DNA from: a virus
Strand: one strand, 5' to 3'
Virus record (IMG/VR): IMGVR_UViG_3300025655_000017
DNA length: 64,000 nucleotides
Below the pieces are notes generated by a model, which saw only the letters and a list, made by a program, of their open reading frames with translations, did not search any database and had not been told where the DNA came from. This document shows positions 11,715-12,407 of this stretch, piece after piece (within the stretch, counting starts at the first letter, position 1; each line of letters begins with the position of its first letter). The translations under genes and the position numbers were made by a program.

Positions 11715-11883
11715 TAATTAAAGAACAATGTTTTTTAGAAAGAATAGTAAAAACTATATGCAATATAATGGACTATTTAAAATATTTAAATAAAAAATTA
11801 GAAAAAGCTTGCAAATACAAATAAAAAGACATATATTTGTATTGTAAAACAAAAAAAGAATTTTTTTAAACTATTTATAGGAG

Positions 11884-11967
11884 ATGAAAAATGTAACTGT
11901 ATATTATTATAACTTTAGTTGGTGCTTTTTTTCGGAGGAATCTGAAAAGACACTAGGGGTTATGTAA
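11884..11967 (+). CDS. putative attenuator leader peptide MKNVTVYYYNFSWCFFSEESEKTLGVM
   Basis: AGGAG immediately upstream; Tyr/Phe/Ser/Glu-rich; followed by a terminator abutting the tRNA cluster. Confidence 0.65.
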   Translation: MKNVTVYYYNFSWCFFSEESEKTLGVM

Positions 11968-12037
11968 TATAATGTTACAAACAAAGATTTATAAAAATCT
12001 CCTAGTTCAATGTTTTTGAGTTAGGAGATTTTTTTTT
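11952..12037 (+). promoter_or_regulatory. attenuator: antiterminator strand (11952-11959) and intrinsic terminator (11993-12037)
   Basis: 15-bp stem AATCTCCTAGTTCAA/TTGAGTTAGGAGATT plus T run; ACTAGGGG can pair with CTCCTAGT. Confidence 0.65.
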
Positions 12038-12111
12038 GTTGCCGTGGACGAAGTGGTTAAGTCGTGATATTTTCAATATCAAGGTTACGGGTTCGAACCC
12101 CGTCGGCAATA
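12038..12111 (+). tRNA. tRNA-Glu(TTC)
   Basis: GTTGCCG/CGGCAAT, TGATA-TTTTCAA-TATCA, ACGGG-TTCGAAC-CCCGT. Confidence 0.85.
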
Positions 12112-12138
12112 CGATATCTTCAAAAGAGAAGGTAAAAT

Positions 12139-12213
12139 GGTGAGATAGCTTATATGGTAGAAGCGCAGGTCTGAAAAACCTGAGATGGTCGGGATCGTTA
12201 CCCCCTCTCACCA
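12139..12213 (+). tRNA. tRNA-Phe(GAA), irregular T arm
   Basis: GGTGAGA/TCTCACC, CAGGT-CTGAAAA-ACCTG. Confidence 0.8.
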
Positions 12214-12230
12214 CATATTATTATTAAAAT

Positions 12231-12312
12231 GGGCGTATCGTATAGCGGCAATTACGGGAATCTGTAACATTCCTCTCATTTGAGTTCCAAGGTTCAAATC
12301 CCTGACCTACCG
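12231..12312 (+). tRNA. tRNA-Tyr(GTA)-like with non-pairing acceptor stem (chimeric or pseudo)
   Basis: GGAAT-CTGTAAC-ATTCC, long variable arm; 5' GGGCGTA does not pair with 3' ACCTACC. Confidence 0.6.
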
Positions 12313-12319
12313 CAATTTA

Positions 12320-12407
12320 GGGAGGTAATGTAAGCTTGGTTGCTTACGCCAGACTGCTAATCTGTGCGCTCCTGAAAGGGAGGGGGGTTCGATACCTCTG
12401 CCTTCCG
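12320..12407 (+). tRNA. tRNA-Ser(GCT)
   Basis: GGGAGGT/GCCTTCC-G, CAGA-CTGCTAA-TCTG, long variable arm. Confidence 0.8.

Follow-up and report, generated by a model that had tools for sequence, protein, structure and literature searches.

The element described here precedes an array of tRNA genes in a phage genome and is probably a ribosome-mediated leader-peptide transcription attenuator, which would open the array when ribosomes stall at the tyrosine, phenylalanine and serine (AGU) codons of a short leader and would be closed again by negative feedback via the released tRNAs. It occupies positions 11809-12037 of a window of 64,000 nucleotides (nt), the whole stretch of DNA that was analysed, which corresponds to bases 61786-125785 of one virus record of 132,834 base pairs (bp), IMGVR_UViG_3300025655_000017 (G+C 28%). 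The analysis directly supports the presence of the unit's parts in the sequence, their capacity for alternative pairing as computed by folding, and the repeated occurrence of codon-matched leaders before other phage tRNA arrays. Since a matched layout is found before tRNA blocks in four other phages and agrees with the anatomy of this unit, the tRNAs are probably made only under slow decoding. The parts of the unit and the genes behind it are the following (window positions).

11809-11839, plus strand: promoter of Bacteroidota type, with TTG at 11809-11811, a 20-nt spacer and the -7 box TAnnTTTG at 11832-11839
11884-11967, plus strand: leader open reading frame (ORF) of 27 codons and UAA, starting at the first AUG of the predicted transcript
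11893-11936, plus strand: region 1, 5' arm of the long leader hairpin, overlapping codons 4-18 (minimum free energy structure and pair table)
11941-11978, plus strand: region 2, 3' arm of the leader hairpin, holding the antiterminator segment 11952-11959
11993-12037, plus strand: intrinsic terminator (regions 3 and 4) with 5' arm 11998-12010, loop 12011-12015, 3' arm 12016-12028 and U-run 12029-12037
12038-12112, plus strand: tRNA-Glu(TTC), called by ARAGORN, Rfam 59.4 bits
12139-12214, plus strand: tRNA-Phe(GAA), called by ARAGORN, Rfam 46.2 bits
12230-12310, plus strand: tRNA-Tyr(GTA)-like gene, irregular, partial Rfam match of 18.6 bits, called by relaxed ARAGORN only
12320-12408, plus strand: tRNA-Ser(GCT) of class II with a long variable arm, Rfam tRNA-Sec model 40.3 bits (cut-off 47), called by relaxed ARAGORN

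Transcription is predicted to start near 11844. The sequence TATATTTG corresponds to the Bacteroidota -7 box TAnnTTTG, preceded by a TTG at a distance of 20 nt, and 11809-11839 shows the form of a Bacteroidota primary-sigma promoter (-7 box and TTG(-33) about 20 nt upstream). A preliminary description of this DNA had also placed a promoter here; the TTG/TAnnTTTG pair bears this out, and the TATTTAT that it had named besides finds no support as a promoter element. The same description pointed to AGGAG ahead of the ORF. This motif directly adjoins the ATG with a spacing of zero and a Shine-Dalgarno (SD)-like motif is absent in 124 of the 129 long ORFs of the genome, therefore AGGAG is not a ribosome-binding site. 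The objection that an ORF with an SD spacing of zero must be untranslated was rejected, because the SD is unused genome-wide and the start context is average. In the 129 long ORFs guanine is depleted and adenine enriched (at -14 to -6) upstream of the start codons, and by this genome's own start-site profile the leader ATG ranks at the 35th percentile of genes and in the top 11% of random ATGs.

As is typical of attenuators, the promoter is followed by a short ORF early in the leader transcript, whose putative regulatory codons are clustered (YYY, FF and EE). The 27 codons at 11884-11967 comprise three Tyr, three Phe, three Glu and three Ser codons (one of the latter being AGT), exactly as had been described before, and codons 7-21 hold the runs YYY, F, S(AGU), FF, EE and E. 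Ten of the 27 are decoded by the four tRNAs of the array (p 0.02-0.04). No other of the genome's 565 small ORFs contains Y, F, E and S three or more times each, and by a window-scan statistic 12 of the 15 residues at leader positions 6-20 are Y, F, S or E (P 1e-5, empirical 0.003).

The leader RNA is strongly structured. Its hairpin (11893-11978) comprises 36 bp with -30.3 kcal/mol, and the entire leader reaches z = -7 in comparison with shuffles. Neither a further copy of this hairpin in the genome nor an Rfam family was found, and the only Rfam matches in the leader are weak ones at chance level. Between the leader ORF and the genes that would be controlled stands an intrinsic terminator, again as in attenuators, one of 13 clear ones in the whole genome. 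The core stem at 11998-12028 has 13 bp (-13.9 kcal/mol), five A-U pairs extend it to 18 bp and a T9 run follows. Its T run ends at 12037, as the preliminary description had stated, and tRNA-Glu starts at the next base with no promoter in between.

An alternative pairing connects both structures. The segment ACUAGGGG at 11952-59, whose end is followed by the leader stop codon after 5 nt, is complementary to CUCCUAGU at 11999-12006 in the 5' arm of the terminator. This pairing had been proposed from inspection and is confirmed by calculation as an 8-bp duplex with -12.2 kcal/mol (P about 0.015-0.03 versus random genomic 100-mers). Among the 13 genomic terminators the most stable upstream complements belong to the two that precede tRNA arrays (P 0.017-0.027), i.e. 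this one and that of a sister unit described below; a further terminator attains P 0.031, with a duplex that is weak (-7.2 kcal/mol). At both tRNA-array terminators 37 nt separate the end of the complement from the arm, and the leader stop codon lies 5-8 nt behind the complement.

The dependence of these pairings on a ribosome was modelled by folding the nascent RNA up to position 12012 with a ribosome footprint of 30 nt masked. The helix between regions 2 and 3 (2:3) forms with a probability of 0.63-0.78 when the A site is at codons 9-13 (Y9, N10, F11, S12 = AGU and W13) and of about 0.3 at codons 14-15. The probability is 0 in the absence of a ribosome and likewise when one stands at the AUG, at codon 17 or beyond, or at the stop codon. 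When no ribosome is present the hairpin of regions 1 and 2 (1:2) has a probability of 0.92 and the terminator forms too. In silico, then, region 2 is covered by a ribosome that has reached the stop codon, and a leader that is not translated pairs 1:2 and terminates, which is the behaviour of an attenuator.

The broadest evidence comes from other tRNA arrays. Six phage records were compared, namely this genome and five that share an RtcB relative, and a fixed rule was applied (an intrinsic terminator at most 150 nt upstream of a tRNA on the same strand). The scan yielded 11 terminators, two in this genome, four in IMGVR_UViG_3300020160_002689 (G004) and five in IMGVR_UViG_3300015615_000196 (G001). 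Two were set aside, one inside an array with an ORF that lacked a match and one before tRNAs without a standard amino acid. All nine testable loci, distributed over three phage genomes, have an ORF of 20-42 codons that ends 24-43 nt before the terminator. In eight of them the leader is enriched for the amino acids of its own array, with an empirical p of at most 0.006 in seven and of 0.03 in one (Fisher about 1e-10). If every leader is compared with every array, the own array is the best match for eight of nine, and the diagonal sum of this matrix amounts to 47.6 versus 13.9 +/- 5.4 for permuted pairings, a value reached in three of 200,000 permutations (about 1e-5). A clear example is the run PQPQHQPQ before a Pro-Pro-Pro-His-Gln-Gln-His-Gln array at G001:101214-101297. 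By a simple complement test a significant antiterminator complement lies inside the ORF at five of the nine loci. In ribosome-mask folds across the loci the terminator arm is sequestered with the A site in the matched run and free right after it; according to the same folds some units would be read through by default if untranslated.

The sister unit lies in the same genome (G000), outside the window, at 56486-56914, with its promoter at 56486-56516, an ORF of 30 codons at 56664-56756 and its terminator at 56777-56813. Its last ORF codons contain a 9-nt complement to the terminator arm. The array behind it encodes Asp, Leu, Pro, Val, Asp, Ala, Gly, Arg and Gln tRNAs, and a run of nine codons in the leader covers seven amino acids of this array. 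A tRNA-Met-like stretch, which was not called as a gene, lies between promoter and ORF. The further units of the same layout are given below.

G001, 101214-101359, 82876-83007 and 61542-61730: three units
G004, 51135-51329, 49499-49635, 33286-33461 and 9644-9816: four units
LR756501.1, 207396-207491: one unit
Caulobacter phage phiCbK (JX100813.1), around 49540-49769 and 51150-51502: two units

They resemble the unit studied here in having a promoter, an array-matched ORF of 20-45 codons, an intrinsic terminator and a tRNA array; they differ from it in that their sequences are unrelated and each has its own set of amino acids. LR756501 and phiCbK stand outside the formal test, and phiCbK as well as the second case in LR756501 were inspected post hoc. 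In LR756501.1, an uncultured phage of 735 kb, a leader partly homologous to the Lys/His/Phe/Trp leader of G004 precedes a Trp-His-His-Phe-Lys array, and a second candidate was seen before an Arg/Thr/Val/Ala/Gly cluster. In phiCbK the terminators annotated by the depositors precede tRNA blocks and the small ORFs before two of these blocks, Pro-Lys-Leu-Ser and Phe-Val-Ile-Gln, are rich in matching residues, an agreement less clear than that of LR756501.

Several features of these arrays deserve mention in their own right. By name, a single leader fails to match its array (L009:10744-10963, i.e. G004 49499-49635): a Ser-rich one of 25 codons, with a terminator, before a tRNA of 86 nt that has a long variable arm and an ACG (Arg) anticodon; because its class II shape suggests otherwise, its charging identity may not be Arg. 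Arrays of G001, G004 and LR756501 are sorted by amino acid with several near-duplicate copies (for example Lys five times with Tyr twice, Leu five times, Glu three times), and they contain many tRNAs of 84-89 nt for amino acids that are normally served by short ones. Moreover, tRNA genes with a CUA anticodon are present in G001 and LR756501.

The recurrence of matched leaders bears on a first alternative, in which the unit is unregulated: a gene for a small structured RNA or a micro-protein with its own terminator, the tRNAs being transcribed by leaky read-through or from farther upstream and the matches being coincidental. Promoter, hairpin and terminator together with z = -7 are indeed what a small RNA gene usually shows, a related contig (L001, see below) retains the hairpin pairing, and a stop codon 24-43 nt before a terminator is normal for any gene. 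The terminator always forms at equilibrium, and terminators directly before tRNAs also occur in L009, which speaks for a common arrangement. Nevertheless we regard this explanation as unlikely. It leaves unexplained that eight of nine leaders match their own array, that the strongest arm complements occur at just the two tRNA-array terminators and that the matched runs coincide with the permissive ribosome positions; besides, a small RNA is not suggested by a hairpin without genomic copy or Rfam family.

A second alternative keeps the terminator/antiterminator switch and replaces the ribosome as trigger, either by an antitermination protein of phage or host acting as a timing gate (leader early, tRNAs later) or by direct binding of tRNA in the manner of a T-box. 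Delayed-early genes of T4 and lambda N/Q act through terminators, and T-box leaders sense tRNA directly. That alternative pairings exist and that the phage has many genes without known function is in line with such a trigger; however, no match to the T-box (RF00230) or to another cis-regulatory family was obtained in 11300-12900 with E values up to 10, and a protein gate requires neither an ORF nor codons that mirror the array. Many unrelated loci have retained open ORFs whose stop codons stand at a constant place with respect to the switch, which makes a trigger other than the ribosome rather improbable. Finally, a leader that senses decoding speed and acts on the processing or stability of the precursor (e.g. 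on RNase access to the 5' end of tRNA-Glu) is conceivable because tRNA-Glu adjoins the U-run, so that leader structure could affect RNase P cleavage, and because the 2:3 helix is short, but a strong hairpin and a U9 tract make up a canonical terminator and the complement of its 5' arm is placed as in classical attenuators, hence we hold this to be very improbable.

According to the attenuator model, then, transcription would start near 11844 from the host-type promoter and the first AUG would open the 27-codon frame that runs through the long hairpin of regions 1 and 2. We infer that this leader is translated, that the switch is under kinetic control and that it responds to the tRNA supply. 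If the leader remained untranslated, the 1:2 hairpin and the terminator would form and the RNA would end at 12037. During fast translation the ribosome would reach the stop codon and cover region 2 (11952-59), again allowing the terminator to form. A ribosome stalling with one of about codons 9-15 (Tyr, Asn, Phe, Ser-AGU, Trp, Cys and Phe) in its A site would melt region 1 and leave region 2 free to pair with 11999-12006 before the 3' arm of the terminator is made. The polymerase would then continue into tRNA-Glu, tRNA-Phe, the Tyr-like gene and tRNA-Ser(GCU), and RNase P would remove the leader by a cut at 12038. New tRNAs would speed up decoding of the leader and the unit would be shut off. 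Such a switch would respond to slow decoding from any cause; loss of host tRNAs to anticodon nucleases as trigger, which the preliminary description had proposed, would be compatible with the RNA-repair genes nearby.

Several observations weigh against this model and have to be set beside the evidence for it. At this locus the enrichment over the whole peptide is modest (p 0.02-0.04). Upstream of the start codon G occupies positions -1, -3 and -4, and the A preferred at -3 is missing. Only one of the three Ser codons of the leader is of the AGY type. The gene that matches the YYY run looks defective, and the Glu codons 18, 19 and 21 lie outside the 2:3-permissive range although tRNA-Glu leads the array. 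The preliminary description had relied on AGGAG, the Tyr tRNA and the Glu codons, and these are its weak points; the geometry of trp/phe attenuation which it had recognised holds in that the 2:3 helix appears only with the A site at codons 9-15 and has a probability of 0 at the stop codon, and it does not extend to the Glu codons. Furthermore, the 2:3 helix has only 8 bp (-12 kcal/mol) versus 13-18 bp of the terminator, and in the full-length RNA the terminator wins at equilibrium for every ribosome position (0.90-0.97). Hence only kinetic control could operate the switch, as in the trp leader, and four free apical pairs could serve as a toehold for displacement. Four of the nine testable loci lack a significant antiterminator complement by the simple test, coupling of transcription and translation in the host is assumed, and the leader is represented by only one sequence variant.

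This variant was obtained with tRNA-Glu as anchor, which retrieved L001 and L010 as the only relatives of the leader. The two do not differ from one another in the aligned leader region and share 96% identity with the window. Their leader frame is open despite nine substitutions, and one Tyr codon is changed to AGT, which is decoded by the Ser tRNA of the array. Pairing is kept in three of four changes at paired hairpin sites, and in L001 a G-to-A exchange at 11958 turns G-U into A-U in both the 1:2 and the 2:3 helix and improves both. Being a single variant it is consistent with the attenuator model and not a test of it. Metagenome contigs over this stretch represent two haplotypes only, that of the window and the L001 type. 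L001 itself (IMGVR_UViG_GVMAG-S-3300010316-20_000001) is a contig of 5.5 kb filed in a giant-virus bin, a binning that is probably wrong because the contig is 96% identical to this phage.

Other searches for relatives gave less. Matches to L011 and L012 were rejected as chance matches. L003/L004, with the order Lys ... Phe-Glu-Ser, were rejected as comparable units since the gap is filled by protein genes. No relatives of the sister locus were found with tRNA-Asp as anchor, no homologous leader was detected by DNA search of the five related records, and a DNA search of cultured phages returned a tRNA-Phe fragment only. The protein encoded at 12839-13315 has no relative in the viral contig database.

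The genes behind the terminator differ in quality. The earlier assignment of four tRNAs is firm for Glu(TTC) and Phe(GAA). tRNA-Ser(GCT) remains under the default thresholds, yet it folds as a class II cloverleaf and reads AGY only. The Tyr(GTA) gene falls short of a canonical tRNA: its D and anticodon arms are intact and only two of the seven acceptor pairs are possible. Because the acceptor stem cannot pair, this tRNA-Tyr-like gene at 12230-12310 is probably defective. Its first 26 nt match an intact Tyr tRNA of phage G001 (L013:1443-1525) with 96% identity; the gene may be decayed or recombined. A contrast to the whole array is provided by tRNA-Lys(TTT) (window 11424-11547, tRNA at 11474), which has its own TAnnTTTG promoter ending 20 nt upstream and neither leader nor terminator. 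Downstream of the array a G+C-rich island in AT-rich DNA (12620-12760) partly resembles the variable arm of the Ser tRNA, and a similar piece is present on another metagenome contig; in folding the island does not surpass shuffles (z = 0.17), and no Rfam family matches it. On the minus strand Rfam matches 114 nt at 53036-53149 as a tRNA (54.5 bits); this match has no ARAGORN call and may contain an intron or a large insertion.

Judged from the encoded gene set the window belongs to a tailed phage. Among its products are a major head protein, an SbcC-like nuclease, a Dda-like helicase, an RNA ligase, a nucleotidyltransferase, a split RtcB and two TnpB-like proteins. RtcB, the RNA ligase and the nucleotidyltransferase of phage family phrog_388 are encoded near the array. 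The RtcB-like RNA ligase frame (window 13319-14353) has two in-frame stops at codons 22 and 166 and is either a pseudogene or read through. The TnpB-like transposase genes (phrog_506) form a close pair at 36991-38214 and 39550-40758. Public runs that contain the record of this uncultured phage are freshwater and aquatic metagenomes, and no RNA dataset is among those listed.

Expression signals of the phage, as far as they can be read from its DNA, are of Bacteroidota type and match published data on Flavobacterium (PMC6847099, PMC9723704). The pattern TTG-N19-21-TAnnTTTG occurs 39 times in the genome versus 12 times in shuffles, i.e. it is enriched threefold, and it precedes also tRNA-Lys and several genes. 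The Bacteroidota promoter consensus (-7 box TAnnTTTG and TTG(-33)) and the -12 to -5 position are described in PMC6847099. NCBIfam yielded no match for the protease, nucleotidyltransferase or RNA ligase and hence no support for a host assignment based on the type IX secretion system. The Tenacibaculum phage PTm1 has no tRNAs.

Attenuators that respond to several amino acids are known from enterobacteria, namely thr (Thr/Ile) and ilvGMEDA (Ile/Val/Leu), besides those of trp, his, phe and leu. The present unit resembles them in its short ORF with clustered codons for several amino acids, in the order of 1:2 hairpin, 2:3 antiterminator and 3:4 intrinsic terminator with a finishing ribosome that would mask region 2, and in its spacing, the U-run ending about 70 nt after the stop codon. 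In contrast with them, it is a phage element that would control tRNA genes instead of biosynthetic enzymes or synthetases and it belongs to an SD-less host type; its region 2 is part of the ORF and precedes the stop codon, and its antiterminator has just 8 bp. The pheM leader of the Escherichia coli pheST operon attenuates a tRNA synthetase operon via Phe codons. There, as proposed here, leader-peptide attenuation tunes the decoding machinery and not amino-acid synthesis, although pheST is cellular and concerns a synthetase and one amino acid, whereas the product here is a set of tRNAs. With the T-box riboswitch (RF00230) the unit shares a leader RNA whose choice between terminator and antiterminator would report tRNA status; the T-box binds uncharged tRNA via a specifier codon without translation, whereas the leader here is an ORF with many codons.

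In Flavobacterium psychrophilum leader-peptide attenuation candidates have been reported upstream of amino-acid operons on the basis of transcriptome clues (PMC9723704). These candidates concern biosynthetic operons of the host and suggest that the mechanism is workable in SD-less Bacteroidota with TAnnTTTG promoters. A full-text literature search found no description of leader peptides before phage tRNA arrays. The mechanism would be of a known kind, applied here to phage tRNA genes, with leaders that appear to mirror the amino-acid set of the array.

It has long been asked why phages carry tRNA genes, and recent studies indicate an escape from tRNA-cleaving defences (PMC10264068, PMC11555353). 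We tentatively suggest that codon-matched attenuators may form a general on-demand tRNA circuit in tailed phages of several host phyla, which would turn on each tRNA block upon slow decoding of the codons it serves and would spare tRNA synthesis otherwise, which would answer tRNA depletion, including cleavage by anticodon nucleases, and which together with RtcB, RNA ligase and nucleotidyltransferase might represent the sensing arm of a tRNA maintenance system. As the layout seems to be shared by the cultured Caulobacter phage phiCbK, the idea is testable at the bench. If it is true, phages would regulate their tRNA supply by demand, classical attenuation would be extended from amino-acid operons to tRNA genes, and the leader peptide would be a sequence signature of which tRNAs of an array work together.

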